NCBI GenBank assembly: GCA_001804285.1
Contig: MHFR01000042.1
Location: forward strand, 78,725-142,724
Direction of reading: 5' to 3'
DNA length: 64,000 bases
Origin: Candidatus Danuiimicrobium aquiferis
GTDB taxonomy: Bacteria > Omnitrophota > Omnitrophia > Omnitrophales > Danuiimicrobiaceae
In this document: positions 4,849-63,400 of the stretch, piece by piece
Layout of the letters: the number at the start of each line of letters is the position of its first letter
How positions within the stretch are numbered: the stretch's first letter is position 1
Notes under the pieces: model-generated
The model's input: the letters and a program-made list of their open reading frames with translations, nothing else
Databases searched by the model: none
Told to the model about the DNA's origin: nothing
Made by a program: the position numbers and the translations under genes

Positions 4849-4918
4849 TGTCATTCCCGCGAAAGCGGGAATCCAGACGAACAGCTGGATGCCCGCTTTA
4901 GGCATGCGGGCATGACAC
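4849..4918. repeat. Paired-hairpin element (GTCATTCCCGC gaaa GCGGGAATCC ... GCCCGC..GCGGGCATGAC), intergenic
   Basis: Two adjacent stem-loops with (A/G)TNCCCGC / GCGGGNAT(G/C) stems. Confidence 0.8.
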
Positions 4919-16771: not shown

Positions 16772-16838
16772 GTCATTCCCGAAAGCTTTTGTCGGGAATC
16801 TACAGCCTTAGATTCCCGCTTAAAACTTGCGGGAATGA
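16772..16838. repeat. Paired-hairpin element, same family
   Basis: GTCATTCCCGA..TCGGGAATC and GATTCCCGC..GCGGGAATGAC. Confidence 0.8.
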
Positions 16839-16885
16839 CAAAAAACCGGTCAACCTGAGTTACATAGAAAGGTTGTTCATAACAT

Positions 16886-21091: not shown

Positions 21092-21239
21092 GTTATTCCC
21101 GCCCCGTATCTGTGTCATTCCCGCGAAGGCGGGAATCCACATGCCGAGTAAATCTCAGCGAGAATTATGGATCCCCGCTAACCCCGGAAAAGCTGGGGCC
21201 GGCCCTTTCTTTCCCAAGGGAAACTTGCGGGGATGACAA
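21092..21239. repeat. Composite paired-hairpin elements between nuoL and nuoM (includes the long-loop variant GGATCCCCGC taaccccggaaaagctggggccggccctttctttcccaagggaaactt GCGGGGATGAC)
   Basis: Stems match the family; the loop has nested mini-hairpins. Confidence 0.8.
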
Positions 21240-28384: not shown

Positions 28385-28520
28385 TTCTCAATGACCAAAT
28401 CCCCCTCCAAAATGCATGGCGGGCAGGCAATGGCCAAGGAAGTTCCAATGTTTCAAATTTCAATTGGAACTTTATCTTTTTGGAATTTCTTTGTGTCATT
28501 GAGATTTGGTCATTGGTCAT
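28385..28520. repeat. CAATGACC-family element between nuoB and nuoA
   Basis: Reverse complement of the 25915 copy's core (AATGCATGGCGGGCAGGCAATGGCCAAGGAAGTTCCAATG...). Confidence 0.8.
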
Positions 28521-28526
28521 TTTAAT

Positions 28527-30560: not shown

Positions 30561-30629
30561 GGTTAGTGAGATTCTACGTCGATACAATAGGAAATAAAGG
30601 CGAAATATTGTGAAAGGGGAAGATTTACC

Positions 30630-32200: not shown

Positions 32201-32227
32201 ATAACCGCCTTTTTGCTTTTGGCCTAA

Positions 32228-32275
32228 CCCGACTTCCTCATCGATTCGCAAAATCGATGAGGAAGTCGGGTTAAT
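32228..32275. repeat. Mini-copy: terminal hairpin of the MITE-like family only (AACCCGACTTCCTCATCGATTCGCAAAATCGATGAGGAAGTCGGGTTA)
   Basis: Perfect 20-bp stem; same terminal sequence as the family. Confidence 0.7.
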
Positions 32276-37743: not shown

Positions 37744-37851
37744 GATCCCCGAATGTCTTTATCGGGGAACCATGTTTATTAGATTCCCGCTAACCCCGGA
37801 AAAACTGGGGCCGGTCCTTTCTTTCCCAAGGGGAGCATGCGGGAATGACAC
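37744..37851. repeat. Paired-hairpin element with long-loop variant between nfeD and the stomatin gene
   Basis: GATCCCCGA..TCGGGGAAC then GATTCCCGC taaccccgg...ggggagcat GCGGGAATGAC; a compensatory stem change relative to the 21171 copy. Confidence 0.8.
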
Positions 37852-39321: not shown

Positions 39322-39349
39322 AGTAGGGGCAATTCATGAATTGCCCCTA
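39322..39349. repeat. REP palindrome GTAGGGGCAATTCATGAATTGCCCCTAC (canonical copy) downstream of the RAYT gene
   Basis: Perfect 28-bp palindrome with 5' GTAG. Confidence 0.9.
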
Positions 39350-39375
39350 CAAAACGGCAAATAAAATGTCAAAGG

Positions 39376-39903: not shown

Positions 39904-41609
39904 TGAACCTTGGGATTTTCTACAGGTGCTTCCCACAACTGATAAAATTCAGGCTGATCACTGTAAATTGTTTCAAGTGCTTTCGTCAAAAAACCATTCG
40001 TGTAAGCATCAATATTTGCGGTGAGCTCATCAATCCGGAGGAGTGCGTTCATTCGTTCCGGAAAAGATTCTCGCGGCTCGAGGATAAATTCCAGCTGGTT
40101 TCGCCGGCGTTCGTAATAAAGCCGCGTGATTTCGCCGAGGAGATCGTTCCGGAGTTCCACCATCATTTTCTGGCGGGAATCGATGGACGTTTGTGCGGAA
40201 TTAAATAGCAAATCACCGACGTCCCATCCGAGATCAAAATCCCAACTTTCGTCAGTGTCGGCCGGGCCGAAGATAAATTTGTCGGCATCGCTGGTTCCGC
40301 CGCGGTCGAGATCGACATTGTTTGATGTCGAAAAACTTTTTCCGATTGAAAATGAAGGAATAAGAGCGCGAAGGCGCGACGTCCACTGCCAGCGTTTGAT
40401 TTTCCAGTTGCTCACATCAGCGTACAGGATCACTTCCTTCTGGACAGCCCGGACTGGCGGCTCTTCGCGCAGCAAATCATTTAATAAATTCCAGTGGCCG
40501 GGCGAAAAAATAACGGGATTTTCAGGATAAAAAACCTTCGGATCAATGGTGATGAAAAAAATACCATCGTCGGTTGCTGCGTAAAGGATTTCAGTCTGGT
40601 TTTTCCGTGCTAACATTAATTGCCGGGCGGCTGTGGCCGGCAGGCCTTCGTATAATTCTTTCCAGCCCCGGGATTTTTCATCGTAAAAGAAAACGCCTTT
40701 TTCTGTGCCTGCAATAACGGTTTTTGCTTTTGCCGAATAAACAAGATCGAGGACGTTTGTATTCAGAAGGCCTGTTTGCGGAAGGCTCTCCCAGTGATTT
40801 CCTTCGTCATCGCTTGTGAAAACTCCGCGCGTTGTACCGATGAAAATCCGGGAAAACGGATACGGTAAAATGAGAATTTTCTGAATTCGGAACGGATTTC
40901 GTGTTAGCGCTTCGTTCGATTCGCCGGAGCCGTTATTTTCCGTCTCTTCCATCGTTTCAATTTCCGTCAAATCAGAAAGAACCGATTGCGTGTAATAAAT
41001 GCGGTCTATTTGACGGCGGGAAGAAATATACCGGTAAAGTCCTTTTTCACTTGCAATAAACATTTCTTCGTTTTCAAAATCTGTTTTTAAATCCCAAACG
41101 ACTTCGCGCGAAAATTCATTTGTTTCTGCCGCCCAAGTTTTTCCGTTATCGTTACTTTTGAAAATGCCGCCGTGCGTGGCGAGATAAAAAATTTCAGGTG
41201 TTTTCGGGTCACGGCTGATGTTAATGGTGTTTTGATCGTTTGGATTCACGCCGTTAAAAATTTTTGTCCATTTTCCGCCGTTGTCTTCCGATATATAAAC
41301 GCCGTCTGAAGTGAGCAGAAAAAACCGGTTTTCCTGAATGACCAAATGATTCATTTGAAGCTCGGAAGCAAAGGCTGTCAGAGTTTTCCAGTTTTTTCCG
41401 GCGTCATCCGAGCGGTATAAATTTCCGCGCCATCCGATAAAAAGGCAATCCGGGTTTTCGGGGTGAGAAATAACAAAGTCGGTTTTTCCGTGTGCCGGCG
41501 ATTGGGATAAAATTTCCCAGCCTTGCGCGAATGCAAATTTGGTGTATACTCCGCAGATTAGGAGAAAGAGAAGAAAGCTAAAACGTGTTTTTTTGCCCAC
41601 AAATGTCAT
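39900..41609 (-). CDS. Secreted BNR/Asp-box repeat beta-propeller protein (start reassigned to 41609)
   Basis: Four S-x-D-x-G-x-x-W Asp-box repeats (SDDAGKNW, SEDNGGKW, SNDNGKTW, SDDEGNHW); signal peptide after the reassigned start; the upstream extension lies in a repeat. Confidence 0.6.
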   Translation of the reverse strand: MTFVGKKTRFSFLLFLLICGVYTKFAFAQGWEILSQSPAHGKTDFVISHPENPDCLFIGWRGNLYRSDDAGKNWKTLTAFASELQMNHLVIQENRFFLLTSDGVYISEDNGGKWTKIFNGVNPNDQNTINISRDPKTPEIFYLATHGGIFKSNDNGKTWAAETNEFSREVVWDLKTDFENEEMFIASEKGLYRYISSRRQIDRIYYTQSVLSDLTEIETMEETENNGSGESNEALTRNPFRIQKILILPYPFSRIFIGTTRGVFTSDDEGNHWESLPQTGLLNTNVLDLVYSAKAKTVIAGTEKGVFFYDEKSRGWKELYEGLPATAARQLMLARKNQTEILYAATDDGIFFITIDPKVFYPENPVIFSPGHWNLLNDLLREEPPVRAVQKEVILYADVSNWKIKRWQWTSRLRALIPSFSIGKSFSTSNNVDLDRGGTSDADKFIFGPADTDESWDFDLGWDVGDLLFNSAQTSIDSRQKMMVELRNDLLGEITRLYYERRRNQLEFILEPRESFPERMNALLRIDELTANIDAYTNGFLTKALETIYSDQPEFYQLWEAPVENPKVQ

Positions 41610-41673
41610 CCCCGAATGTTTTAGTCGGGGATCTATAGTTTGTGGATTCCCGCTTAAAGCATGCGGGAATGAC
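41605..41673. repeat. Paired-hairpin element at the 5' end of the BNR gene
   Basis: ATCCCCGA..TCGGGGAT and GATTCCCGC..GCGGGAATGAC. Confidence 0.8.
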
Positions 41674-41794
41674 AATAAAGAGGGAAAAAATCGAAATAGG
41701 TTGTTTTTTTTCATGTTGTTTAGATCTCCTTATAATTGATTTATGATCATAAAGTATATGATTTATAAGAATAATGTCAAGGGGGAAGTTTCAA

Positions 41795-41945
41795 GGATGA
41801 AATTCCAATGACCAAGCACACAATGACCAAGTACACAATGACCAAGCACACAATGACCAAGGAATTTCCAATATTTCAAAATCCAATTGGGAATTTATTT
41901 CTTTGGGATTTATTTGCGTCATTGGGTTTTGGGCATTGGTTATTC
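41795..41945. repeat. CAATGACC-family element upstream of ychF with a 4x tandem 13-bp subrepeat (CACAATGACCAAG)
   Basis: Direct subrepeats plus terminal GTCATTGGGTTTTGGGCATTGGTT. Confidence 0.75.
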
Positions 41946-41963
41946 TAATTTGAGGGAACCAAA

Positions 41964-44037: not shown

Positions 44038-44160
44038 ACTGAAAATCCCAATGTCCAAATCCACAATGACCAAAAAAATCCCAAGAAAATCAAATATCCA
44101 ATTGGACTTTGGACATTGGGAGTTATTTGCGTCATTGTGTGCTTGGCCATTGGTCATTTA
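44038..44160. repeat. CAATGACC-family element between cysE and rnhA
   Basis: AATCCCAATGTCCAAATCCACAATGACCAAA ... GCGTCATTGTGTGCTTGGCCATTGGTCATTT. Confidence 0.75.
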
Positions 44161-44178
44161 ATTCACACGTTTAGCATT

Positions 44179-44986: not shown

Positions 44987-45061
44987 GGTTCTATTCCCCT
45001 TCAATCTCCTTATAAAAAGTATCTGTTTAGCGTTCTGAAGTGGCGAACACGCCAGGTTCGT

Positions 45062-45125
45062 GTCATGCCCGCATGCTTAAGGCGGGCATCCACAGTTTCT
45101 GGATTCCCGCTTTCGCGGGAATGAC
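45062..45125. repeat. Paired-hairpin element downstream of the TSUP gene
   Basis: GTCATGCCCGC..GCGGGCATCC and GATTCCCGC tttc GCGGGAATGAC. Confidence 0.8.
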
Positions 45126-45139
45126 AAAAAAACAGATGC

Positions 45140-45406
45140 TCTTTTACAGATAATCGCTTCAAAGCGCTAAACAAATACTATAAAAACGCCTAAAAATTGT
45201 ATCTTATTAAATACATTTATAATACATAAAGCACATTTCTAAACAAATGTAAGCTATTTATATATACGTATGTAATAAATATAGTATTCTTTGAAAATAC
45301 CTTTCTAAATTACTTGAAAAACTTAAACTCAGCGTGTATACTTCAAACTGATTCGAACATTCCATGGTATTCCCAAAAATCCGCAGTACTGGAATGTTAG
45401 GGGAAC
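45140..45406 (+). promoter_or_regulatory. AT-rich leader/promoter region of the giant ORF, ending in RBS AGGGGAAC before ATG 45407
   Basis: Local AT richness distinct from surrounding DNA; immediately follows a paired-hairpin element. Confidence 0.4.
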
Positions 45407-48400
45407 ATGAGGGGAAAATCCAGAATACTTAGATCGATAGCAGCGGTGACCGTATTCTTTTTTTTCTGGAATACCGCTACAGCGTACAGCTTGCCGGTTC
45501 TCGGACTTTTGCCGGCCAAGTTAGGCACCGTCCAATCCACACCTGAGCATATTCCGTCACAATCAACCGACAAAACAGTTCTGCTTTTATTAAATGCTCA
45601 TACTTCAAGTGACGCACAAAAAAACATCGCCGAAATGCTGGAGTTCTTTCAGGCTCAAGGCATTGACCTGATTGGCTTAGAAGGCGCGGATGATCGGATC
45701 GACGGTGAGATATTCCGCAGGTTCCCGCATAAAGAGTCGCTTGCGAAAGCCGCTTGGCAGATGGTAAAAGACGGAAAGCTGACCGGAGCGGAATACTTTT
45801 ACGTTACAGCGGAAAAAATACCGGCATTTTACGGGATCGAAGACAAAGCGCTTTATCACGAAAATAAAAATGCATTTGTCGCGACTACCCAATTGCGTGA
45901 AAAACTTGCCGTAACTTTAGAAAAGGTTTCAAACGCCGCCGCCGAACTCAAAAACAAAATTTACTCCAAAAAACTCAAGAATTTCGATTCCCTTGTCACA
46001 CGCCATAAAAATCAGGACACAAGCTTCCTCGATTACTTTTCACAATTAAACGAAGCCTCCGACGATGCGGATATCGCGATTCCGACTTATCCGAATGTTT
46101 ACGCCTTATCAAAAGCAGTTGAAAAGGAAAAAACCCTCAATCAGAAAAAAGTTGCCAAAGATATCGAAAAAATCAAGAAAACCCTCCCGAAAGACGCAAT
46201 CCGGGAAGATATTTTTTCAATGGCCGGTAAAAACGATCTTGAATCTCGGAATAAAGATGAAAATGAAGATGTTTTATATATATATAAGAAGCTCTACACG
46301 TATTTTTCGGGGTTGGTTAATCCAAACGTAGGGGCGGGGTCATCCCGCCCGTTTGAGAAGGGCGCGGAGACCGCGCCCCTACAATTGAATGATTTCAAAC
46401 ATTTTAAGCGTTACTACGAATGGCTTGAAGCCGTTACGGCAGTCAAGCAGGCATCTCTTTTCGAAGAATTAGATGCGCTTGTGGTGCAAATTTACAGCCG
46501 GATCGCAAAATCGGATAAAGAGAAAACGCTGCTTGAAATCAACCGTTCTTTTGAGACATTTCAACAGAAACTTGCAATTCAATTGACGCAAAAAGATTGG
46601 GCGAGGGTGAAGGCTATAAAGGTGCCTGGCACGTTTTTTGTGCCTGGCACCTTTTCCGAACTCGGCGACCGTGCTCCTCAAATTTCACCGGAAGAACTCT
46701 TATTGATCGAACAGGCGAATGCACAGGCCTCCCAATTTTATGAAGTTGCCGAAAAACGAAACGTAATTTTCACAGATAAAATTATCAACCAGATGGAGAC
46801 ATCACAGAAAAACGTTTCCGTTGTTGTGGTCGGCGGTTTCCACGAAGCCGGCCTCAGAGCAGCGCTCGAAGCAAAAGGCGTTCATACGGCCGTGATTACG
46901 CCGAAAATGAAAGATGCGATTTCTGACATTCCGTATATAGAACGAATGACGGGAAAGCCCACCCAGCTTGAAAAAATCATTACCGAAGCCATGAGCGCGC
47001 TCGAACGTGAAATCGTGATTTCCGGAAACGCACCGGACGAGATGCGGCGAAATGCTGCAGTGGAACTTGTAACGGCTTCCGTGCTTGAGCGGTTGTGGAA
47101 TACGGATCCGGCACGCCGGGAACAGGTTGCCGATGAATTGAGTCGATCGATTTCCAGAATAATTCCGGGCGTTCAACTTGGTTTGCAGAAACCGGTTATC
47201 CCGGATGATTGCGAAGGTTCGGAAAAGTGTTTGCAAATTCCCGTTGTAATCAACGGAAAACAAATCGGCTTGTCCTTAAAACAGAATGGCGCGTCGAAAA
47301 CGTTTAGCATAGAGCGGGCAAAAGCCGGGGCGCTTCATGAATCGCCCGTACAACAACCATCCGAAGGGGCAATTTATGAATTGCCCGTACCGGTGAATGA
47401 GAATCCAATATTTCCCGGCGCAAAGCGATCTTTGTTCGCTGGTCACCTTGGTGCTGCAGCGGCAGTTGTCATTTCCCGTTCGGAAGTGCGGACCGTTACA
47501 GTTACCAGAGAAGAAAATGTTACGACGATTACGTTTGATGACGGAACGACAGTTTCTGATAGCAATGCGCAAAAATTAGCGGAAAAACTCAAAGCGGTAC
47601 TTCCTGAAAATCTGAGGACAGGAGTTTTAGAGGGAACCGATAAAGCAGCACAGATTTATGTTGTCTCGGGGTCGCGTGGGCGGGATATATACATATGGAA
47701 TACGGATGAACTTCAAACTGCTTTAAATGAATTATTAACTTCCAAATCCGCAACGCCACAGTTTCCGGCAGCAGCATCTCCGGTTATTGAGGCTCGCTCA
47801 GAACACCGTGTTGCTAAAATATTGACTGTGGTGGGTGTTATGGCGGGAGCGATTGCTTCTTACATAATTCCTAATCAAGCGATTCATTTGATCCAGCAAT
47901 ATAATGCGGATATATTTAAATGGGGTTTGATCAGTGTGGCCGGAACTCTTGTTGGGGGTGCGGTCATAGGATTGCTTTGGCATGAAGAAAGAGCGTGGCG
48001 CCAGGCCGCCGCGAAAACGCGCAACATAACAGATCGTTCCAGTGCTGATCAAGAGAAAGCCCAACGCTCCGAAGTGCGGATGAACGCTGATTTTGATGAT
48101 TTGTTCGGTACAAATTTATTTTCGTCAAGGTTGTCATTGGTGTTTGGGGTAATCCTTGTTGTCGGTATCGGCATCGGTATTGCTGTGAATCGGCATGAAC
48201 GTGGGAATACTCCTTTTCCAACCACTATGCCGGCAGAAAGTGCGCCCTCAAGTAATATTCAACCAGCCACCTGGCCAGCGGCGCGCTCCGAAGTGCGGAC
48301 GCAAAGATCGCCGGAGGAACTTTTAAACTTGTATGGAAGATTTGCGCGTGAATTTGCACAAAGAGCCGCGCCGTATCCCATAGATGAAGTCGGAATTTTT

Positions 48401-51400
48401 CACGTCATTAATTGTTTGAGAAAAATCCCCCGCGATACGAGTGACCGGGAAGGAATGGCGGATCCAAGACTATCAAAACCAATCGCTTATGCTATCGTGA
48501 AGCAAGCCCAGCAAGATGATGCTGAATCGAAAGCGTTGGCCGACCGATTACATATTCCTAAGATCAACCCATTGTATCTCGCGGCATTTGAACAATACTG
48601 GAAATATTTAACTACGCGACAGCCTCCCGTCAGTGACATAAGCCAAACTCTCGGAGTCCCCGTGACCTCCTGGCGGTTTGTGAAAGCGCTTCCGAAAGAT
48701 TCCGGCGAACTCAAAATTGTTCTGGATTATTTTCTGCAAATGCTGCGGAAAACCAAAGCGCAATTAGACCGGTCCCATGAAAGCATGATGGGCGATTCAA
48801 CGATAGTGGATGACATTTTAGGCGGAAGCACAATTCCAAACGGCGAACAGGTCGAAGCGATCAGAATGAGTTATGGCGACGAAGCTGTCGAACCGACGTT
48901 GAGGGAACAAGTTAAAGAATTATTATCGAAAGTGCCCGCACCGCAAGCCCGGCCCAAAGACCTGCAAAAAATTTCATTTGAGAAAATTCGTAAAGATCCG
49001 ACAAATGTGGAGAACTGGGAAACGCTGATCGCGGAATTTAATAAAGCGTTTGTTTATTTGCAGGGTTCTATCAATAAGGAAGCCGACGAGATTCGGAAAG
49101 ATGTAAAAAAGCTACGTGCCGAACCCGGCATGCGGGCATGGCTCGTCAACGGTTTTAAAATCAAGAATTTAATTAGAAAAATTGACCAGGGATACAGAAC
49201 CATCCAGTTTTATTCGGATATTAGCGCGCAGCTAAGCCAGTTGAGAATTCTTGCCCAGGCGGTCCATGACGCCAAGGCGAGTCCGCAAAAATTGAGAGCT
49301 TCTCCCAAGACGGGAAGCGGTCGTTCGGAAGTGCGTGGGTCCTTGAGAGAACGGATGAAAGGTTTTTGGAATGAATTTTCACCGGCTCAACAGCATATTC
49401 TCCGCCGTCAAGCTGGGACCTTGCTATTTATTATCGGAGTTGTCGGAATTGCAGTGGGGTCTGCTTTATTTGAACGCAAATCATCGCCGCCGACGACAGC
49501 TCCTTCTCCTACAAGTCAAAGATCAGAAATACGGACAACGCCAAGCACAGAGGAATTACTTCGGATTTCCGAATATATGAGGTTTAAGGATTGGCAAATT
49601 ATTTACAAGGCCGGATCCGGCCATCCGGGCGGAACTCTTTCCGCGACAGAAATTCTGGCAACGCTTTATTCCGACAGGGAGTTGCTTCGTATCGACCCAG
49701 TGCGGGACAGAAATACAGACTATACAAAACGTTGGAAAAACCGTGACCGGCTTGTGCTGTCTAAAGCACACGTCGTTCCGATTCAATATGTGGCTTTGTA
49801 TCTTTCCGGACTTTTGACGCGCGAGGAGATTGAAGCTTTACGTCAAGATTCCCAAGGACTTGCTCAAGGGCACGCGACAATGACGACGTCCGGTATTGAT
49901 CTTTCGGGAGGCGTACTCGGTTACGGGGCTCCGGCAGCGATGGGAATGGCGGTAGCGGCAAAAATGGACGGCCGCGATTATCATACCTTCACGCTGATCG
50001 GCGACGGTGAAATGCAAAAAGGTCCGATGTTCGAAATGATGCAAATCGCTCCGCAGCTCGGCCTCGATAATTTTACGGCGATCGTGGATTACAACCAGTA
50101 TCAGCAGAATCGCGCCAGCACCGGTTACACGGCCTTTGATTATGACAAGATGTCGAGTGTGTGGGAACTCGCCGGATGGAATGTCATCAAAGTGGACGGA
50201 GAAGATTTCAAAGACAACGCCCGTTATATTGAAGAATTGCGGAAAGGTCTTCGCGATTCCAAGAAAATGAAAAACAGCAAACCGACGGTTGTGATGGTGA
50301 AGTCCATCAAAGGCCGCGGCATTTCGGTCGCAGAAAATTTATTCCGCGCCGGCAATACAAAATTTCATGGTAGCGCTCCGAATGCACAGCAATATGAAGA
50401 AGGCGTGCGGGAAATCGCACCCCGGCTCGGCGTGAGTGTTGAGGACAGAAATCTGGCAGATATTGAAAATGATTTAGAAACAATCGGCGACGAACTGCGG
50501 GGAAAATTCCATGACAAATGGCAGATTAGGCAAGGCGGCTTTTTTGGAATCGATCAGAGGAATGACACGTCAGCAGCCCTTGCTTACCGGGAACGGGCGG
50601 CAAAGGTTGGCCAGATTCAACCCAAAGCATACAAACCCGGAGAGGAAGTCGCGACGCGTGTCGCCGCCGGAGACAAACTTCTTTATGAGGCAAGCAGAGA
50701 TCCTTCCCTTGTGTTTGTGAGTCCTTCTGATTTACAGGATTCCGTCAATTTCAAACCGATTGCGAAAGTATTAGGCGAATTTGGTTCACCGGACAAAATA
50801 GGTGACTTTGGTCCCAAAAGTCCGCAAGGCAGATTAGTCACTATCGGAATTATGGAAGACGGCGGCGTGGCTTTGTCGGTTGGAATTTCGGCTGCAGGAT
50901 TAGGATTTAAACCTTTTGTCGGAACGTTTGATCGTTTCGTCGACATTATGCTGACCACCGTTGAAATGGCTGCGCTTAACAGAATTCCTGTTGGAATTGT
51001 CGGCACTCACGCGGGTTCCGAAACCGGGCCTGATGGCGGCGGAAATTTTTCCATTAAAACACCGGCGTTGATAGGCGCTATTGCAGATCACGGACAGGAT
51101 ATGGCGATGTTCGAGCCTGCGGATGCTCCGGGAACCGTGATGGCGGTTGATCAAATGATTACTACTTTAACATCCGGCATGCCGGCTTATTTAAGAGCCA
51201 GCCGTTCTCCGCGGCTCGTGAGAGATCGCGCAATGGCTGTTCGAGATGAAGGAGAAAATGGATTTATTGTTTGGAAATATGCCCTGAATCCCAAAATTAT
51301 TTTAGTCGCAAGCGGTGCGACAGTGACCAATACCATTAAAGCAACCGAGCTGTTGGAATCTCAAGGGATACCTGTCAGTGTTATCGAAATTACGTCGGTG

Positions 51401-54400
51401 ACGGGAATCGAAAAACCGTTTTCCGGCAATCGTCTTGCCCAAACGTGGCTTGCACCGCAAGTTCCGGTTTATACCATTCATGATGCATCAGCAAATGCTC
51501 TTCATGATCCCGTTCTTGGAGTTGCGCAGAGAACGAGAGCTTACGTTCCGGTTTATTCGCGCGGGATCACCGATGCGGGTTCCGCGTCTCCGGCTGCCAT
51601 GTTTACGGCCAATCGTTTTAATGCAGATCAAATTGCCGAAGATGCGGAGGTTATTGTAAAAGGATCAGTTCCTCCGGGTGTTTTCGTCCGGTCTGAAACC
51701 CGCAACATGACAAATAGTTCCAGTGAGGAGTTAACCGAAGCGCGCAACCGTGAAAATAATTCAGAGGGAATGTCAACGGAAAGCGCGCAAGAGTCCTCGT
51801 CTGATCAAAGTGCTAAGACAAGGGCCGAAGCCAGGGAGTTATTGTTACAAAAATTAGAAGGCCTCCTCGGACAATTAGAACAAATCAAGGACGAAGCAAA
51901 TGCCGATCGAATAAAAACATATCTCCACAGTGTGTCGGAGATGATCAAGATGGCGGGCTGGATGCCGGAAGTAGAGAAATTTATTAAAGAGCATTATGAG
52001 ACAACTTCCGGGGCTCAGGTGTTTGAGCCAACGGTGGATGAGCAAACAAACCAAGATTCTTTAGTGGCGCGACGAATCCGGGAGTTAAGGGAAATATTCT
52101 TCGCTAGTTTCAAAAATGCAGCTGAAGACAAAATCATGCAAGTGGCGGGCGGCTATCTGCCGATGCTCGAAGACTTCCAACGCAAACTTGCTTCCTTAGC
52201 CGAAATCGAAAGTTTTGTGAAAGAAAAGATACAACAACAGATACTGGCATTGGTTGAAAAAACGTTCAACGCTATTTTTGAAAATCCTGCTTTGATAGAT
52301 CCTGAAATTAGAGAGGCTTCCTATGTGTTTTCTGTGATCGGAGACGTTGGCGGGAAAGAAGCGGCGCTTAAAAACATTGCCGCTTGGCTTCGGGAAAACA
52401 AGTTGGAACTTCTTCGCACGCGCATTGAAGAAGGGTTGATACTATTAGGAAAGAATGACGCCAAGACCGACTTAAGTCATGCCTATGAGCTTTTGACGGG
52501 GCGTCCTGCGCCTTCGTATCAAGATGATCAAGTGGGATCCCTTGTCGCAAGCCCCATCCGCTCCGAAGCGCGCAACGAATTAAGTTCCGAGTTGGAAGTT
52601 CAAAGTTTGAAGTTGGGGAAAGAAGGTAAACCTGAAACTTTAAACTCAGAACTTGGAACTCAACTTAGGGCCGAAGCCCGCAACATAACAGATAGGTCCA
52701 GTGAGGAGTTAACCGAAGCGGGTGCCGGTACTTTGGCTGATCAAGAGAAAGCCAAACGTGCCGAAGTGCGCAACCTCGGAAATAGTTCAGAGGAAACATC
52801 AATAGAAAGCGCGCAAGTGTCCTTGTCTGATCAAAGCGCTAAGACAAGGGCCGAAGTGCGGGAAGTTGACTACGCCTATTTGGGGGCTTACGGTTTTGTC
52901 GGGGCCGCGATGCTTGGCGCAGCATTTTATGGGAATTATGCCGCTAACCGCAAAGTAAAAACACCAGTCCAGGAAGCCGTATCGCCGACAGCGCACAGCT
53001 TGATCCTTCCGGTTGTCGATACAACAATCTATGTGACGGAACAGGAATTTCAAGAAATCGTTCAAAAAGCGTTTCCGGCGATTGGGACAGCGCCGCTTGT
53101 GTTTGTGACTCCCGAACAGAATACTGCGTTTCTTAAAACATTTTTACCGCACAGAGAACAACATCTATTCAAAAATCTGGTTTTGGATGAACCGCAGCGA
53201 ACGCTCGGGGGGTCTATTAGTTCGGATCGGGTGCTGACGGGTGTAGGGCAGCCAATCAAAGTATTCGGATTTGTCGGAAATGATGATGCGGGTATATTTG
53301 CGCTTGAGAAACTTAAAGGATCCGGCATCGCGACAGGGATCCAGGTGCTGGATGGCGGAATGACATCTCAAACGCTTGTGATTGAAGTGGTGAAGCCCAA
53401 GACGGACGGCAGTGGCGGTTATGATTCGGCAGGAAGATACTTTTTGCATGTTAAAGGCGTGAATGAAGAACTTGGGAAATATTTAGAAAACGGACGTTTG
53501 AAAAGATGGTTTCTTCAGGAGTTCGGAGAAAACGAAAAGCCGATTCTCCATATCGGTTACGAGGCGCTTTCGTCGGAATATTATTTCCGGAATTTATACC
53601 GGCTGATTCGGGAACTTCGTGCGGAAGTGCCCGGCTTGCGTGTTGCGTTGGATACGGTTGCTGATTTCGGGAATTTATGGGGCAAATTTTCAGATGATGG
53701 GAAAAAATTACTCGCAGAACTGGATGTGCTGACCGTTAGTCTCGACGAAGCGGTAGCCATTTACGAAAAGCTGACAGAAAAAAAACTTACGGACATGAAA
53801 GAAAAAGATATGACGCTCGCTCAGGCGGAAGCGGTGTCGAGAGTCATGGTGCCTTGGTTTCTTGCGACAATGGAAAAAGGCACGGTTTTAATCAAGGCGG
53901 GCAATAAGGGAAGTTTTTATGGATCGAATCATTGGCCGAATGGCGGCTGGCGGAACCGAAAGATTCCGTTTGCATGGATGCCGATTGTTCCTAATGAATT
54001 GATACAAGCTGAATATGCGGCAGAAGTGGATGGCGAAAAAGTTGCCAATACGACCGGTGCGGGCGATGCGGCTTCTGCCGGTTTTATTCAGGCGCTGCAT
54101 GACGGCTATGATGTCCATCAGGCGGCGGCACTGGCTTCGGTCTACGGAGGTTTAAGTTACGGCCAACTCGGAGGAGGCGTCATCGGGCACCCTGCCGAAA
54201 CAGTGGGGAAACTTTATCAGGATTTTGTTGCGGCAAACCGCGGCGATTACCGGCCGGCAGCATTTAGACAATCGTCACTCGCGGAGATGACGGACAAAGA
54301 AATTGAGACCCTGATCATCCGGAGAATTGTTGCTAATAACTTTAAGACAGTAAAACCATGGAGTTTTGGGGCTAAAATTGTAAATGTGGAACCGGTCGAT

Positions 54401-57400
54401 ATTAGTGAAGCGATTGAAAAAGTAGGCGCTGATTTGATTAAACAAGTCCGCGAAATTATTTTGAAATATGGGGAGTTTCGAATTGGGATAGAACCGTCTC
54501 ATGACCTTAAAGAGGATGATACGTCTGAGCCCCAAAGCATGTGGGTTTATCCGCCGTCTTTTGCGACTCAGGGAAGAATGTTTTTCGAATGGGTATATGA
54601 TGCTGTTGCGCAGTATGGAGAAGAACTTTCCGGAAACGGCCATCGTATTTCTTCTTTACAGATGGAACAAATCAGAAAGTTTTTGGCGGCATATCCGGAT
54701 GACAACATTCTCGGCATTGTCGCGATCGACCGTTTTCATTCTCAATATAAAAGAGTAAACAAAATAAACGACGGACAACTCCATTATTTTATTGTCAGAC
54801 GGAATTCTTTTGAGGACGATAATTTTCTCGTTTTGCATCCTGCCGATCAGGACTTTGCGGTAGCGTTTGCCCGTGCAATGCCTTTCGAATTTCACCGGAT
54901 GCCCTTAGGGGCTCTGGTGTTAAATACTCCTGAAGAATTGGGCCAGATCAGCGGTACGGATGTTGTGCTCCAGATGCAGTTTATCCCCGTCTCGAAAATG
55001 GCCGGAGTGACTGCTTACAATTTTGATCCGAATCATGCCTTGATCCAGAAATGGTCTGTGCTTGCAGGAACGCCTGTGTTAGAAAATTGGATAAGAAATC
55101 AGCTTGAGATTCGGATTGCAGAACTTTCCCGCTCGGAAGTGCGAAATACGTTTACTCCGGCGGAACTCGGCGAAATCACGCAGCCGCTGATCGACATTCT
55201 CCATCTTGTCCGCGAATTAGATGCCACATCGAACGGATCTTCTCAATTGAGAGCATTCATTCCTCAAGTCCGGCGGGAAATTGAACGCCTCAACATCGAA
55301 GGATTGAATGCCGTTTTGGTCGGAAAAATTATGCCGGTTGCACAGGGGCTTAGCCATGCGGAGCGGGCTCACCACAGATTTTGGACAGAAACAATGCCTG
55401 CGCCGGTCAGTCGGATGGCTCAAGAATTAGCAACCCGGCAGCAATCGTTAACAGGTGATATTGATCAAAAACTGACAAGAGCAAAGGCTGCTGCGTTGAA
55501 GCCCGTAATTACTCATTTAGTAAAAGCGTATGATTTGGTTGCCGATGCACGCGCAATGCAAAGAAAAGTTTTGCAGGATTCAGAAATTGACGGGTTGTTT
55601 AAATCAACCATTGAGAAAATCGAAGCACTTCAAATTGAAGAAGCGATTGGGTTGATTGATCAAATTGTTGAAACGATAAATTCTCTTCTTGAACTTGATC
55701 CGAAGCAATTGCCTTCAATGGTTTCAAATTTAGAACAAACACGGACCGAACTAAACATTGTTCGCCGTCTATTAGAACCGCGTGCCAATGCCGGCGCGGA
55801 TGTAGCTGATGCGAGGGCCGAAGCCCGCGACCTTGGAAGTTCTTTTGTCATTCCCGCGTCCGCCAAACAACGCGGTCGGATCCGCCAAAGCGTTAGTGGC
55901 GGAAAAGCGGGAATCCAGCTGGATCCCCACTTGCGTGGGGATGACACCAATTTGAGAGCCGAAGTGCGGACTGATCAGGTATCGGCGGAAGATTTGGATT
56001 GGGAACGTGCGCGGCTTGAGCAAGAAGAGGAAGATTTAAGAATTAAATGGGAAGCAACGGAATCGGCATATCTTAGATTAAAACAGCTTAGATCAAAGCA
56101 GCAAGGCGGAATTAGTCATAAGGCACTTACGGATGCTCAACAAAGAGCCGCTGAGGCTAACGGGCAATATCTAAAAGCGCAGCAAGCTTTGTTAGCTTTT
56201 CAGAGACGGATTGCTTCGCGAAACGTTTCTTCGAAACCTTCCGAAACTTTAGTGCAACTTCCGGCGTGGATGTACTCTGCTGTTGGGATTGGTAAACCCA
56301 CGTTCCCGACCGTTGCGGCTCAAGTTGCGGCATTAACCGGTATCGGCGGAGCTTCGATTCCAGTACCGCGTCAGGTGCCAACGTCGTTGCTGCAAATTAT
56401 TAGGTCGGAAGCGCGCAACGATCGAAGTTCTTCTGTCATTCCCGCAAAAGCGGGAATCCAGCTGGATCCCCACTTGCGTGGGGATGACACCAATTTGAGA
56501 TCCGAAGTACGGGGCACAGAGTCCCCAGTGCAAGCGGCGCTCAAAAATATTCTGAATGCGCATTTTTATTTAGGAATCATTCCGGGCCTGATTGCATTTT
56601 CGGTTTTTCCATTATGGAGCGCATCGTTTAGTGCGGAGCGCAGACTTCTTCAGACGAAATTAAGCCGGCAGGGAATTTCTTATTGGCAAGTGGATTGGTC
56701 CGAAATTCCGGCTGACGTGTATGATCAAATCAAAGCCATCCGGGCGTCCGGCGGCGATTTTGATGTTCAGTTCAGTCCGGCCAGGGTTGATGATGAATAC
56801 TCAGACTATCATTATCCGCAAACGCTTCGCATTGTGCCGGTTTCCCTAGAAAAGGGGACAGGCAATCGTTCGCTTTTGAGTCATATGCCTGTCCCCTTTT
56901 CTGCGTTAAACGCTGATCAAGCGCGAGCCGAAGTAAGAAGTGAATTCGGAGAAGTCTTAAATCCAATTTTGGCGGATGTTTATAAGATTTTAGAAAGAGC
57001 CGGACGGAAGTTAAGTTTAAGTCCTCTCGAAATCGAAGAAATCAAAACGCCGGTTAACACCTTCTTGAAATGGGTTGAGTCAGAACACGCGTTATCGCAC
57101 GGTCAATATGAACAAGCGCTGGATATCCGCGTCCGGCATAGTAATCCCATCGGGAAAGACGGAAAACCCGAGCGCGCCCAGGGCGGAATTCGCATTTTAC
57201 TGCCGGAAAATCTCGGAAAAGGGTTCAATGACGAGAAATCCAAATTCTACCAAACGCTCAACAGAATGATTGCTGACGGAAAAATCCAGTTAAATGATAG
57301 TGACCACGAAGTTCAAGCTGCATTAAATCGATTCCTGGAGCAGTGGCTGACCGAAGAAACGACAGCGCTTGCCATTGACATGAGTCTGAAAAATAAAATT

Positions 57401-60400
57401 ATGGGGCTTCCGCACGGCGGCGGGAAAGGGATTTCCTTTTTAGGAAAATGGGAAAAAGTTAATGGTGCCTGGAAATTAGTGCCGATTGTGAAGGCCCAGA
57501 TTCAAGACGGCAAACGTGTGTTTCGAACATCGGATGTGGCGATTTTGATGAGGGATATCGGAAGAACATTTGCCGAAAACAATGTGATTCATGAATTGCT
57601 TGACGGCGGCGCGCCCGATCTAAATCCATTCGGCCCGTCGATTACCACGGAGCTATTAATTTCATGGATGATGGATGAAACTATCGCCGTTCTGATGCGG
57701 AATGAAAATGATGACATTTGGAAACAAAATCCCGGGTTGCTTGAGGAATTAAAGGATGCGGATGATAATGTCATTACCAACCCCGCATTTTTAAAGGTTT
57801 GTATGGCGTATACACAGCGGCATCCCGAAAAGATCCTTCCGTTTCTATCGCGGTACACCGGTAAACCGGTCGGATTAGGCGGGTTGCAGTATCGTAAAAA
57901 AGCAACAGGCGAAGGCGTCGTGGTGGCGGCAGAACGCATGGTCACGAAACTTCTTCCGGAGCGGGCGAAATTAGAAAAACCATTATCCGGATTAACGATT
58001 GGTGTTCAGGGACTTGGGAATGTGGGCACTTGGGTGGCAAAAGAAGCTGATCAGCGGGGTGCTTTAGTGACTGTATTAAGCGATGAGGGCGGGGCTATTC
58101 AATCCCCGCAATTTACGGGTGAGAAGTTGACGACGATTGGGACGTACCGCGATCTCACAAAAACAAGAAGCCTGTTGGGAGTTACAAAGCCAACGCTCGA
58201 TGGCCGGCCGAATCCATATTATATTGAAGGTGTTGAAGTCTTAGCGAGAGGAACGGAAGAAGGAAATATAGCGCTTTTTAAATCGAATACTCAGATTAAA
58301 GTAACGGCGGCAGTACAGGGAGCTATTGATGAAAGCAATGTTGATTTAATCGGAGAAGGAACATTATTCATTGATGATGGTGCTAACGGAGGAACGACGA
58401 GCGAAGCAGGCCGTTTGTTATATCAACGGGCTCCAAAAGTTCACGCACTTTCCGCAATCTTAGTCAGCGGCGGTGGCGTCGGACAATCTTCCCGTGAAGT
58501 GGTGGCGAATCTGACGAATCGCTATACTTCGGAAGGGGAAGACAGGGCATGGGTGTCCGAAAGAATCAACGCTGCTGTGGATGCCACTTGGACGGTTAGC
58601 CGGGCGAATGAGGTTGATATGGGGCTTGCGGCGGCGATGCTTGGAATCAAGCGTTTACGCGGGATTTCATCTTTCCGTGAAGTTCAACCCAATGTTTTGA
58701 AGAATGAAAAGCCTTCCACGATTGATGAGTCGCTTGCGATTGATGAAATCCGGTTGGCGGCTGAACGCCTTCGTCAATATGGAATTGAACAGCTAAATTT
58801 ATTGGCGGCGGCAAAGTTGTCTGAAAATGCCGGTGTCCCGGTTGAAGTTCTCGATGAAACCCTTCATTTGAGTAACTCCTTCAAAATTTTAGGATCTCTT
58901 AATTTTATTTTACGTGAACTGGAAAAGGCAAAACGGCAGGGTGTTACGATTACCACGATCGGGACGCAAACAACATTTAATCACGGATATGCGCTTGCGA
59001 TTGCTTACAATATTCTTGTTAATAAGAATGTCATTGATCCGAAACAGACAGAGCTTGTGATTTATGTCGGGAAAGAGATGCCGCCCGAAAATGTCAAACG
59101 GCTTGAAACGCTTCACGCGCGTGTTGTGCAGTTCGAGAATTACGAAAAAGCCAGATATGAAATGGACCGTACAAAGGAACAACTCCGGGATCAAATGATC
59201 CGGGTTGAGCATTTTAACGGGGTTTGGGAAGGATACGCGACTATTTTCCTCCATCTGTTCGATCAAACTAAAGCAAAAGTCGTAAGCGGCGAGTGGGAAA
59301 ACAAAACAATCGGAGTGACGGTTCCGGTCGGCACGGGCGGATTAATTGCCGGTGCGCAAGTGCTCAAGAAATTGGTTCAGGATGAAAAGCTTCCCGTGAA
59401 CATTAAAATCATCGCGGTTCAAACACCCGAAATCGACAGTTTATATCAATCGCTTCTACAAGGAAGAACCGTGCAAAGGAAGTTTCCCCCGATGGTTTAT
59501 GCCAGAGGAATTGGCGTAGAGGAACCGGAAATATCTGTTGGACTGGCGGAATCGTTTATCGATTACGTGGTGTTGGCGGATGAAAGAACACAGGGAATTC
59601 CGGCGACGAAATTACTTTATGACGATATGTCCATGCACGGTCTGGGAGCGCAGAAATATGAAGTCACCTCAGGTTTGACGGCATCTGTGGCGGTTGCCCA
59701 GAAAGAATTTTTTGCGCGCGAAGGAATTGATCTCTTTATTCCGGTGTTAAGCGGAGCAAATGAAATCGAGTCTGTTTGGGAAGAAGTTTTGAAGAGTGAT
59801 GGACAAATTGCCCGATCCGAAGCGCGCGGAATTTCTGGTGCAGGGCAGAATTCGCTGACAAATCTTACTTTTGCTGAATTTTCGGAATATGTCAAAACCG
59901 GAGAAATCGGCCGGGGAGATCGAATTCAAGTCAGAACCAAAGGCGGCCGGATTGACGAAGTTATTTTCGAGCAACTAGAACCTGAAGGAGGGATTTTTCA
60001 ACCGACCGAAATTCAGGGTATTAAAAAAGTTCGGGAGGCAGGACAGCGTTCCCAGGATGTCGAGGTTGCTTATCAGGCTAAAGATGTTCAAACGGTCAGT
60101 GTCATTGCCCGCAGCAACGGTTCACTGCCTGAATTGTTGATACAGCGTGTTGCCTTACAAGATCGCATGGAACAGATTGTGGATGAAATGGTTGTGCCGA
60201 GCGAGGAATTGCTGAGTTTCAGCGGACGAATGATAGACGAAATGAATGCCGGCCTTCGCGGCGATCCCAAGTCATTAAAAATGATTGCGAGCATGGTGCC
60301 GGAAGCAACGGGGAACGAAAAAGGAATTTATGGATCTACCGATATGGGTGGGACAAACCTCAGGAATTTATTTATTAAAATTGAAAATGGCGAAGCGTCT

Positions 60401-63400
60401 CTTGTGGCAATGACAAAGGCCACGATTCCGGTCAATTTAATGGGCAAATCGTCCAGCGCAAAGAAGTTATTTAAATTTGTTGCCGGCAAACGTAACGAAT
60501 TTCTAAAATCCAGAGTATTAAACAAAGCGCTTAAAGATCAAAAAATTAGTATTCCAGAAAAAGATTTGATCGGATTTGCGTATTCTTATCCGGCCGATAT
60601 GGGCGCGATTGATATCGCTTATTCAAGTGGAGCGACTAAATATATGTTACTGACGGATATTGAGGGAAAAGATGTCGGCGCGCTTTACAACGAGGAGCTT
60701 CAAGCCTTGGGATTAACGGCAAGTCGAGTGGGCGCCATTATCAATGATACGGTGGCAACCGGCGCGCTTGCGCAGCTTGCCAACAAAAATGTTCTCGGCG
60801 GTGGCATATTAGGAACGGGCGAAAACTGGGCTTATCTCGAAGATATTGAAAATATTCTTACTTTAACTGAGGCGCAAAGGCAGTGGCTTCGCGAACATGG
60901 CATCAAGAGGATGTGGATCAACATAGAAGCCGGCGGTTTTGATCGAGTGCGACAGACCGAATATGATAAGCAAATGGATCAAATTTCGCCGAAACCCGGT
61001 TCGCAGTTGGCGGAAAAAATGATTTCCGGCATGTATTTGGGCGAACTGGTTCGCGTGATATTGACAGATTTGGCAGGCAAAAAGCTCCTTTTTAACAGTC
61101 AAACCGGGAATCTGTTAGAGACTTCTTTCGGAAAAGATGAATACGCCTATGTTTCAATTTTCGGAATCAGGATCCCTCTTTTTAAGAAACTTGCGGAGCT
61201 TCTGAAAACTATCGGATTAGGCAGATGGATCCGGAAGAATGTTTTCACCTCTTCCGATATGGATCCTATTGCGGCGGATACAACACCCAATCTTAGCATG
61301 ACACGAAATGTTCTCCGGAAATTTGGCATTATGCAAACGACTTATGAGGAACGGAAGGCCGTCAAACGAATTGTGGATCAAGTTGCTTTGCGATCGGCTT
61401 CTCTTGCGGCTGCTCAGATCATGGCAATTATTTTAAAAGTAGATCCGAATCTGGAGCGGTTCCATGGGATGGCTATTGACGGAAGTTTGTTTGAGAAATA
61501 TCCGCGCTACGAAAAGATGATGATGGGTGCGCTCCGTAAAATTGCGGAGAGGAAGTTCGGGGACTCAAGAAAGGTTGATCAAATCACACTGACGCTCAAG
61601 AAAGACGGAACAGGCAAAGGCGGCGGAGCGGTGACTGCGATTGCCGATCAGACAAAAATTGCCGAATTGCCTCGGTTCCCTCGCGTACAAACGGGAGAAA
61701 ATTTCCGGAACCTATCGATTCAGAAAGTGGTTGAGTTGGTGAATGCGCTTGATCTGGGCTATCAGCAGGCTCAAGGGCTCAGGGCGGTGATGGTCCAATC
61801 GTCCGGCCAGAATGTCCAGGTTTTCTGGCGGGAAGGAAGACAACCCATCGGCGGTTTTAGCCGTGCGCTGAACGAAATTAGCCAGATGTTACGCGGCCTT
61901 GGAAGTCCCATATTTGATTTATATGAAGTGAGCCACAAAGGCGCGCTGGGACTTGTCATTGTTCTTTCCGGGCAAACTCCTGCACGCGGAAAAATCGGTG
62001 ACGTGTTTAACATTGCCAGGGCCGAAGCGCGAGTGGCGCAAACGGCGGAGGAATTTGGCAGACTTGCCCAGGCGGCACAAGAAAAAGGATGGATTTCAGA
62101 GGCGGCGTTAGCGAATATCATATCGTGGGGCAGTTCCGAATATAATTTGCGGCTCGGACAATTTTTGACCAAAATGTTTTCCGGTTTCGATGAAGATATC
62201 ACAGTCCACGAAGCCATTACGAAACAGTTTAATGCTGCCGGCCAAAATGAAAAAGTCTGGAAAGAAATCGGCGATGCTTGGTATGAAATCCTGAAAGTCG
62301 GAACAGCCGGTATGCGCGGCAAGATCGGATTCGGCACGAACCGGATCAATCTTTTTACGATCGGAAAGCTTGAGCTTGCTCACGCTTTGGCGGTTGCGGA
62401 TGATCAATATAATGACATTGTGAAGAAGGTGGATTCTCAATTTGATCCGATGACGGAAAGAAAAGCGGTTGTAATCGGCGGTGATTCGCGGCATGGTTCA
62501 TGGCTTCCGGATGCGAAGCAGCCGAACGGCGGAACGCCGGGCTGGCAAATTAAATTAGAAGCTTTGTTGAATGTTGTCCACGGTGTTCGCGCGTATGTTT
62601 ATCAAATTCCAACTTCAACGCCACAAATTGCATGGTCGACGCACAGCCTTGAAGTGGCCGAAGGTTACCGGATTGTGTCCGGCTCGATGAATACGGCAAG
62701 TCATAATCCCGCCACGGACAACGGAAACAAACCCTACAAACCGGACGGCTCCCAGTCGACCGGCGAGTTTGCTGATCTGCTGAAGGACCTGGTCAAGAAG
62801 GCGACACCGGACTATCTTGCGACGCTTCAATATGCCAACCGCAATATTTTAGAAAACATTGATGAGCTGTTCGAACAGGCCGTGAAGAATGGCGAGATTG
62901 TGCTGATCGGCGGCGACAACGATCCGCTTAACGTGGATGATCAATTTGTCGAGGTGGAGCTTGACGAAGCGATTCATACGATCGGAGATTTGTTTGATCA
63001 ATCGAAAATTGATTTAGAAAACGCAAAAATTGTTATTTCACCGCTTTGGGGTGTTTCAAAGCATATCTTGGCTAAAATTTTAAAACGACGGGGCCTTCGC
63101 GACGATCAGATCATTTGGGTGGAGGATGTGCCGAATCCTGATTTTCCGGGTGTGAAAGAAGGAAAGCCGAATCCTGAATCGCCGAAAGCACGGGAAGTGG
63201 CACTGCAGAAAGCGATTGATACGGGCGCGGGTCTTGTGTTGTGGACGGATCCGGATTCCGATCGTCCTGCGGTTGCGGTATTGAAAGATCCCAAAGCCAA
63301 GCCGGCCAATTTTGACGATTTTATTTCTTTGAACGGCAATATGCAGCTGGCTGTGTTGACGGATTATTTGATTCGTGAAATTAAGGAATTGGGAGATTTG

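Follow-up and report, generated by a model that had tools for sequence, protein, structure and literature searches.

The DNA analysed here, a window of 64,000 nucleotides (nt), comes from 'Candidatus Danuiimicrobium aquiferis', a member of the phylum Omnitrophota represented by metagenome-assembled genomes (MAGs; Omnitrophica) from the Rifle aquifer. This genome is densely seeded with short structured repeats, and two of them, which are the subject of this study, lie in frame inside a giant multi-enzyme gene. The first 6,197 codons of that gene occupy positions 45407..64000 of the forward strand and the gene continues past the window end, as judged from the open frame, the Pfam matches and a gene call at the European Nucleotide Archive (ENA). 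The frame is free of stops from 45401 to the end of the window, without a break at 64000, and the gene call, made in an independent ENA assembly, gives a protein of 11,856 amino acids that starts at window position 45407. Pfam matches to transketolase, PfkB kinase, Glu/Leu/Phe/Val-type dehydrogenase, a PLP (pyridoxal phosphate)-dependent enzyme, hexokinase and phosphoglucomutase all fall in this one frame, and the hydropathy profile of the open reading frame (ORF) has five peaks, with transmembrane helices interspersed. Giant multi-enzyme proteins have been described from the same phylum as 'Archaeovorins' (bioRxiv 10.1101/2023.11.21.568195) and as 'multi-enzyme metabolic clusters' (bioRxiv 10.64898/2026.06.07.730766). 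They share with the gene described here a length above 10,000 amino acids, tiled sugar-metabolism enzymes (phosphoglucomutase, hexokinase, kinases) and interspersed transmembrane helices. Because the organism is one of the Omnitrophota, and given the length of the gene, its many unrelated enzyme domains in one frame and its transmembrane segments, it belongs to this class. An assembly artefact was ruled out for the upstream half of the giant ORF, since the window and assemblies of five or more separate samples agree at 99.98-100% identity wherever they overlap, which is up to 54,037 only. Inside the element region, independent confirmation covers only the second element and its surroundings, through a single metagenomic contig (L033).

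The first element (copy 1, 55847..55945, + strand) is an inverted pair of hairpins of the Ssn-related motif (SRM) type, 99 nt or 33 codons long, which encodes VIPASAKQRGRIRQSVSGGKAGIQLDPHLRGDD. The second (copy 2, 56435..56488, +) is a compact SRM hairpin pair of 54 nt, or 18 codons, which encodes VIPAKAGIQLDPHLRGDD. A reading of this DNA from its letters alone (the sequence-only reading) had proposed two repeat copies in frame in the giant ORF, and this is confirmed: the frame is kept open through both, and both are read without stops in one and the same frame (VIPA...KAGIQLDPHLRGDD). Its coordinates, 55847-55946 and 56435-56490, had the starts right, whereas the ends had to be moved to 55945 and 56488. 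Alignment and folding revealed that copy 1 is the 54-nt form of copy 2 plus a 45-nt (15-codon) hairpin-forming insert (55858..55902, +) nested in the loop of its first hairpin. From 55903 on the two copies are identical at every nucleotide, and a pattern search found the 45-nt insert at this single place in the window. Each element as a whole is itself a palindrome, consisting of two SRM-type hairpins in inverted orientation that meet at GGAATCCAG/CTGGAT, and the predicted RNA folds reach -50.4 kcal/mol for copy 1 and -31.3 kcal/mol for copy 2 (z -5.2 in each case). The length of the compact form is a multiple of three, and four of its six frames are without stops.

Whether the inserted peptides fall in predicted surface loops or linkers had been posed as a check. 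In a single-sequence AlphaFold model of 55130-56938, both element peptides lie in predicted coil between predicted helices, with a predicted local distance difference test score (pLDDT) of about 30, and no meaningful Pfam domain match covers them. Searches of Pfam, NCBIfam and PDB with the segments around the elements likewise gave no meaningful match, those in NCBIfam lying far below cut-off, and a literature string search with the element peptides found nothing. Between the copies lies a segment of 144 amino acids (segment B, 55970..56401, +), helical and then hydrophobic, for which protein and family searches detected neither homologue nor family.

Both elements are bracketed by a short peptide word of the form R-x-E-x-R. 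RAEAR (55814..55828, +) ends six codons upstream of copy 1 and RAEVR (55955..55969, +) begins three codons, reading TNL, downstream of it; RSEAR (56402..56416, +) and RSEVR (56498..56512, +) stand six codons upstream and three codons, again TNL, downstream of copy 2. The geometry is therefore the same at both copies: word, six codons, element, TNL, word. The 6,197 residues of the giant ORF contain 18 instances of the word R-[SA]-E-[VAI]-R, where 0.055 would be expected, and the 13,762 ORF residues of the window outside the giant gene contain none; allowing Thr at the fourth position (R-[SA]-E-[VAIT]-R) gives 19 sites, spread over window positions 47477-62032. Words stand at module boundaries, for instance 12 residues before the transketolase domain and on both sides of the hexokinase module, and they are often paired 30-73 residues apart, with one transmembrane helix between them, or a spacer that is acidic and rich in Ser, or, in two cases, one of the elements. 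Six codons are used for Arg at each of its two positions and four for Ser, Glu being always GAA; because the codons at the word positions vary, the word is conserved, and selected, at the peptide level. The sequence-only reading had described the bracketing as a DNA motif, CCGAAG(C/T)NCG, on both sides of each copy. The peptide word is indeed present on all four sides, whereas the DNA pattern CCGAAGYNCG is found at three of the four flanks only, because the word at 56402 uses TCG-GAA. As a DNA-level motif of the element CCGAAGYNCG was rejected, given that it misses 56402 and that the codons vary. Because the 18 occurrences are far above expectation and stand at module boundaries throughout the gene, the bracketing word is best assigned to the linkers of the host protein and not to the element. 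The linker that holds the element is a generic, non-enzymatic cassette of the host, with an R-[SA]-E-[VA]-R word at either end.

What might the word itself be? Its distribution makes R-[SA]-E-[VA]-R a candidate for a site of processing or a boundary between modules. According to West-Roberts et al. (bioRxiv 10.1101/2023.11.21.568195), the cleavage points of Omnitrophota giant proteins are unknown. No description of an R-x-E-x-R word was found in the two giant-gene papers or by string search. Term searches of these papers met 'palindromic', 'linker' and 'polyprotein' in neither paper and 'motif' not in bioRxiv 10.64898/2026.06.07.730766, and a literature string search for RSEVR/RAEVR returned irrelevant matches only.

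The family to which the hairpins belong was defined in a Nat Commun 2025 paper (PMC11893778). As presented there, the Neisseria Transformation Sequence (NTS) has the consensus CGTCATTCCCGCGMAVGCGGGAATCYRG with one mismatch allowed, the SRM has the pattern HGTCWY N0-2 YYVSBRH N0-5 WNVSBRG N0-2 RNCYNB, and these motifs encompass the dRS3 repeat of Neisseria. The partner enzymes, Ssn, are small single-domain GIY-YIG nucleases (class cd10448) that bind the hairpin and cut the adjoining single-stranded DNA in a strand-specific manner; they are associated with SRMs across phyla, their gene usually has SRMs on its flanks, and GTC before the palindrome and C after it are positions important for cutting and binding (PMC11893778). 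In the window, the NTS is matched at 4849(+) and 45099(-) with one mismatch and at 21113(+) and, within the giant ORF, at 56434(+) with two, where 0 matches are expected. The SRM pattern has seven matches, compared with 0.16 in Markov-chain controls, and 56434-56461, the first hairpin of copy 2, is among them; the second hairpin of the in-ORF copies (stem CCCCAC/GTGGGG) falls outside the strict pattern and was read by eye. The hairpin is nearly the same here, (C/T)GTCATTCCCGC-4 nt-GCGGGAATCCAG, including the GTC before and the C after, and these two flanks, GTCATTCCCGC...GCGGGAATC, are invariant in nine aligned copies from three phyla. Allowing up to one mismatch, the 64-kb window contains GTCATTCCCGC 15 times, whereas 1.4 occurrences are expected and no shuffle reached 15. 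Taken together, the sequence match, the hairpin with its oriented GTC/C flank and a copy number far above chance identify the in-ORF features as evident copies of a non-coding self-complementary repeat, an inverted hairpin pair of the NTS/SRM family. The repeats are also alike in being multi-copy, mostly intergenic and present across phyla. In contrast to the repeats of PMC11893778, the unit here is an inverted hairpin pair of 54-69 nt with terminal inverted repeats of its own, the host is one of the Omnitrophota, two copies lie within a coding frame, and no ssnA homologue was located in the sequence examined. A term search of PMC11893778 for 'coding' gave two occurrences, and the one passage shown is not about repeats inside genes.

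The proposed kinship of the in-ORF copies with an intergenic family held as well. All six loci that had been listed for it are present, and the termini TGTCAT...ATGACA, the stem of hairpin 1 and the centre GGAATCCA/TGGAT are common to in-ORF and intergenic copies. The latter are 64-124 nt long, one of the six having a length divisible by three. The gene calls put five of these six between genes; the other one is at the front of a secreted BNR protein, in its leader or its annotated N-terminus.

The elements are not confined to this phylum. A genome-collection scan with one genome per species found the compact core at 28 loci, in Sulfuricurvum/Campylobacterales and in Alphaproteobacteria, none of them in Omnitrophota; a scan of viral contigs with the element gave 0 matches. 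Apart from three Pseudolabrys loci, all 28 have the 54-57-nt architecture of the in-ORF form, and the compact in-ORF form is closer to these foreign copies, as regards spacing and the length of the loop, than to the 64-69-nt intergenic copies of the window. Because the Sulfuricurvum/Campylobacterales and alphaproteobacterial loci have the same architecture, we regard the compact form as a canonical, trans-phylum one. In three Sulfuricurvum MAGs, orthologous genes with B12-binding, radical-SAM and DUF4080 domains (Pfam; 75-79% nucleotide identity) have two sites at which the element is present in frame (at 5325-5400 in L012, around 5002 in L013 and around 4156 in L022). Site 1, between the B12-binding and radical-SAM domains, is filled in L012 and L022 and empty in L013; site 2, in the C-terminal DUF4080 domain, is filled in L013 and L022 and empty in L012. 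The frame used in the window (VIPAKAGIQLDP...DD) is used at three of the four filled sites, the fourth being read in another frame. In L022, site 1 holds a form with a long spacer, together with an additional half copy for which another frame is used, and at site 2 a further 30-nt insert is nested in the end of the element. The terminal inverted repeats are TGTCAT(T/C)CC...GG(A/G)ATGACA; no target-site duplication is visible at the window copies, and the Sulfuricurvum sites are too diverged to define one. These orthologues show hairpin pairs that have evidently been gained or lost within genes of another phylum. Because Sulfuricurvum radical-SAM genes hold the element in frame, in-frame residence is not peculiar to the Omnitrophota giant gene. 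In-gene copies elsewhere, had they been mostly out of frame or with stops, would have spoken for chance in the window; those of Sulfuricurvum are in frame and stop-free too. [quoted passage not shown]

Why are the two in-ORF copies alike beyond the element itself? Their common flanks extend over 44 nt upstream (82%) and over 70 nt across the 3' half and beyond (96%; repeat families D18 and D14). The CCCCAC/GTGGGG stem of hairpin 2 and the AGCT centre are private to the two, and TNL precedes no other R-x-E-x-R word and follows no intergenic copy. The two cassettes are thus shown to be paralogous and not independent of each other. Since flanks, geometry, hairpin-2 stem and TNL are all held in common, one insertion followed by duplication of the linker cassette is most likely, as opposed to two targeted insertions. 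Copying of linker cassettes has occurred more widely in the giant gene, because other linkers of the gene are also mutually related at the nucleotide level (families D9, D11 and D20). Of the two explanations first offered for the bracketing, joint movement of element and linker therefore gives the best fit. The other, in which the element or a mobilising enzyme recognises R-x-E-x-R-bracketed linkers and inserted twice independently, would account for the same geometry at both sites, six codons after the first word and three before the second, and it could draw on the fact that palindromes of this genome nest in one another's loops, which suggests some target preference. We nevertheless consider it quite unlikely. 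Neither the word nor CCGAAG stands beside any of the six intergenic copies of the window or any of 30 copies in other phyla, conservation of the word concerns its amino acids and not its DNA, and the likeness of the in-ORF copies on both sides of the element, together with their private hairpin-2 stem, is what duplication predicts.

On balance we think it probable that an NTS/SRM hairpin pair was inserted in a host linker and that the cassette was then duplicated within the giant gene. The pair would have arrived by insertion into the linker, where the gene would have stayed intact only with a version that kept the frame and had no stops, and the 18-33 encoded residues would be a tolerated filler of a disordered linker and not a functional domain. 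The whole cassette (word, six codons, element, TNL, word) would then have been duplicated or converted within the gene to give the second copy, and the 45-nt insert would have entered the hairpin loop of one copy later. Spread of the element in this genome would presumably be due to an Ssn-type nuclease acting like a transposase. Near-identical copies may in turn undergo unequal homologous recombination, giving in-frame duplication of the 181-codon unit between them. A contig of 2,809 nt, L033 (Ga0156133_121), the only related one in a metagenome scan, has such an arrangement. By exact 25-mers it maps as window 55935-56500 followed by 55903-58200, so that a 543-nt (181-codon) unit, one element plus segment B, is tandemly duplicated with the frame open. 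Its junction is a hybrid that combines the 5' flank of copy 2, a 54-nt element and the 3' flank of copy 1, which would be the expected product of unequal crossing-over between the copies.

Several points weigh against this account. At this gene we infer insertion by analogy, because the searched databases contain neither an empty-site allele nor a homologue for this stretch of the giant gene. The compact 54-nt form is absent among the six intergenic copies of the 64-kb window, so no source copy is seen there. No gene for a GIY-YIG nuclease was recognised by Pfam among the called genes of window 1-54 kb, in the 10 kb upstream or in the giant ORF; a GIY-YIG regular-expression screen had no match in the window and none in all the other loci either, so that its sensitivity is undemonstrated. 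The duplication in L033 could be an assembler loop through the 55-nt exact repeat. The AlphaFold model of 55130-56938, built from a single sequence, has low confidence overall (mean pLDDT 45), and translation of the giant ORF through the elements as protein is a prediction only.

A word-indexed search of 5.8 billion proteins with 55130-56938 returned only a self-like fragment (P0001), and a HMMER search of 1.84 billion representatives with 54200-56938 returned only P0001, a remote match to an upstream domain that lacks the R-x-E-x-R word (P0002) and a spurious 100-amino-acid repeat ORF (P0003). Since nothing else was returned, no homologous giant gene lacking the insertion was available for comparison. 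A protein search with the 43-residue cassette gave no word matches. The fragment P0001 (413 amino acids) is 99-100% identical to the giant ORF over window positions of about 54740-55837; its end reads ...RAEARDLG followed by RSEER, and it departs from the ORF at the start of the element block. If 55838-56497 (660 nt) were deleted in frame, DLG would be joined directly to RSEVR, which may be compared with this end. P0001 may represent an allele that lacks the block with the two elements, or else a chimera made in protein-level assembly, the latter because its N-terminus is also out of frame; no contig or other DNA is recorded for it.

Other explanations of the in-frame hairpins themselves were weighed as well. 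It seems very unlikely to us that they are kept because they act in the very long transcript, for instance by signalling its processing or stability or by making ribosomes pause where modules meet. Stability of the predicted folds is indeed high (-31 to -50 kcal/mol, z about -5), and several unrelated palindromes are found near module boundaries too, for example at 56848-56902 before the RAEVR at 56924 and at 47324-47392 before the RSEVR at 47477. However, the element folds in this way by itself at any location, the intergenic copies on either strand included, and covariation or conservation gives no support because no homologues were found. No T-run is present, Rfam reports nothing at gathering thresholds (chance-level hairpin matches only, E 0.26), and the partner nuclease tested in PMC11893778 did not, in the account given there, interact with RNA. 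We would give slightly less credence to the view that the linkers are remnants of intergenic spacers, the gene having grown by fusion of neighbours with the repeats carried into frame. All in-ORF palindromes do lie outside Pfam enzyme domains, and the same repeat families populate the intergenic DNA of this genome; yet the copies flank a 144-residue non-enzyme segment and not two enzymes, the host-specific linker cassette (R-x-E-x-R-N...SS...) is also present without a palindrome, and fusion would need the loss of stops, starts and promoters at every junction. Finally, it is highly improbable that the protein has co-opted the encoded peptide for a function, be it as a binding loop, say, or as a spacer cut out where R-x-E-x-R processing sites stand on both sides, since the shared frame (VIPAKAGIQLDP..DD) of the window and three of the four filled Sulfuricurvum sites is offset by the fourth site being in another frame, by the nucleotide identity of the window copies, which points to recency rather than selection, and by a peptide that is predicted to be disordered and has no Pfam family.

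Insertion followed by cassette duplication places the elements close to known systems. As summarised in a 2024 review (PMC10969869), the Rickettsia palindromic elements (RPEs; Ogata et al. 2000/2002) are about 150 bp long and lie in frame in Rickettsia genes. In-frame fusions by small palindromic elements are already reviewed there, with RPEs as the extreme case and MITE fusions considered 'not unusual'. The RPE-like behaviour first suspected from the window is borne out by the in-frame, stop-free addition of a peptide both there and in the Sulfuricurvum genes. Like RPEs, the elements are palindromic selfish DNA that adds a short peptide and leaves the gene intact, and their presence varies between related genomes, as seen here for Sulfuricurvum. 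Unlike RPEs, they measure 54 and 99 nt, outside the RPE size as described. A link between SRM elements and RPEs is possible, because Rickettsia is listed in PMC11893778 among the SRM-rich genera. The elements resemble REPIN/RAYT systems in having an inverted doublet of short hairpins as the repeated unit, and REPINs in being non-autonomous and presumably mobilised by an enzyme present in single copy that recognises single-stranded hairpins. They differ from REPINs in that the doublet starts with TGTCAT and lacks the GTAG head, the RAYT gene of this window is flanked by a different palindrome, GTAGGGGCAATTCATGAATTGCCCCTAC, and the enzyme associated with SRMs elsewhere is a GIY-YIG nuclease and not an HUH/Y1 transposase; the assignment to REPIN/RAYT was accordingly not made. 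The finding is thus one of SRM/NTS hairpin pairs behaving like RPEs, with the Omnitrophota giant gene as the new host context; the kind of event is already known.

The intergenic hairpin pairs of the window differ in their inserts and surroundings. That at 4850..4916 (+; motif search and gene calls) is 67 nt long, has a first hairpin one mismatch from the NTS and sits inside an inverted-repeat element of about 150 nt. The pair at 45062..45125 (-; motif search) lies 280 nt upstream of the giant gene start. The two share about 160 nt including flanks, in inverted relative orientation (4798-4949 (-) against 45028-45178 (+)), and an outer inverted repeat, TTTAGCG.TTTGAAG...CTTCAAA.C.CTAAA, is seen in both. 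A pair of 68 nt with a variant stem lies at 16772..16839 (strand unassigned; motif search, repeat comparison and gene calls). The pair at 21114..21237 (+; motif search, repeat family D15), with degenerate partial copies beside it at 21027-21102, has an insert in the loop of hairpin 2, and the same nested insert is found in the pair at 37744..37849 (strand unassigned; repeat comparison): 21170-21238 and 37782-37850 have 69 nt in common at 90% identity, the insert included. Because inserts sit in the loops of these two pairs and of in-ORF copy 1, hairpin loops look like preferred targets for palindrome nesting in this genome. The remaining pair (41605..41673, -; motif search and gene calls) belongs to a secreted protein of the BNR/Sortilin type (604 amino acids), being part of its annotated N-terminus or of the 5' leader; as annotated (41605-41714, -), the hairpin pair falls within codons 15-37. 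An ATG inside the terminal GGGGATGAC of this element opens a canonical signal peptide (MTFVGKKTRFSFLLFLLICGVYTKFAFA, followed by QG after the cleavage point), and for this reason the element may supply the real start codon of the protein, or else sit in its 5' leader.

At least four further palindrome families lie in frame in the giant ORF, and none overlaps an enzyme domain recognised by Pfam. A palindrome with GTAG...CTAC ends (46320..46390, +; pair I1; fold -44.7 kcal/mol, z -7.2) encodes VGAGSSRPFEKGAETAPLQ, and a short one (46618..46654, +; pair I5; fold) encodes KVPGTFFVPGTFS. Two degenerate copies of the REP (repetitive extragenic palindromic)-type GTAGGGGCAATTCATGAATTGCCCCTAC (47324..47392, +; family D7) encode GALHESPV...GAIYELPV. 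A palindrome with perfect 17-nt arms (56848..56902, +; pair I3; fold -31.4 kcal/mol, z -7.1) ends 22 nt before the RAEVR at 56924. The giant gene appears unusually tolerant of palindromic inserts. For its hexokinase module (window 59813-62032), the best database matches, at about 25-34% identity, come from hexokinases of eukaryotic type (vertebrate HKDC1/HK2, plants, fungi); giant proteins were absent from the results of this protein search, which consisted mostly of ordinary hexokinases from eukaryotes. Elsewhere in the window, a RAYT-type Y1 transposase gene (39376-39903, -; Pfam Y1_Tnp, E 1.2e-6; HUH motif 'HIHGII', 'YYEH') is flanked by intact intergenic copies of GTAGGGGCAATTCATGAATTGCCCCTAC. 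These palindromes were located at 39323-39350, 39606-39633 and 27201-27228, one perfect copy lying just downstream of the RAYT gene and another inside it, in frame, between its two catalytic motifs. A TAACCCG...CGGGTTA palindrome has five intergenic copies (6118-6172, 7515-7569, 7842-7896, 30512-30566 and 32220-32274). An intergenic family of the CAATGACCAAG type is found at 23997-24117, 25276-25330, 28480-28527, 41806-41950 and 44041-44163, with copies overlapping at a spacing of 15 nt at 41806-41861. A composite repeat of about 170 nt occurs twice (7519-7687 and 17239-17408, 88-98% identity).

Our findings extend the recently characterised NTS/SRM hairpins, the targets of Ssn, to the Omnitrophota, and indicate that inverted SRM hairpin pairs behave in an RPE-like manner in at least two unrelated phyla, their presence in Sulfuricurvum differing between orthologues. 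Annotators should expect peptides like VIPAKAGIQ...LDP.LRGDD within genuine proteins, beyond spurious ORFs. The R-x-E-x-R word, in turn, provides a concrete candidate for module or cleavage boundaries. A further, speculative step, which we regard as unlikely on present evidence, would be that R-[SA]-E-[VA]-R marks processing or module boundaries, that the stretches between words are excised or functionless and so safe for hairpins, and that repeats and cassettes allow modules to be duplicated and shuffled in frame as the giant gene grows. If this were true, repeats together with linker cassettes would be one mechanism by which giant genes grow. Repeated linker cassettes and the repeats embedded in them are candidate substrates for in-frame module duplication in the giant genes of Omnitrophota.

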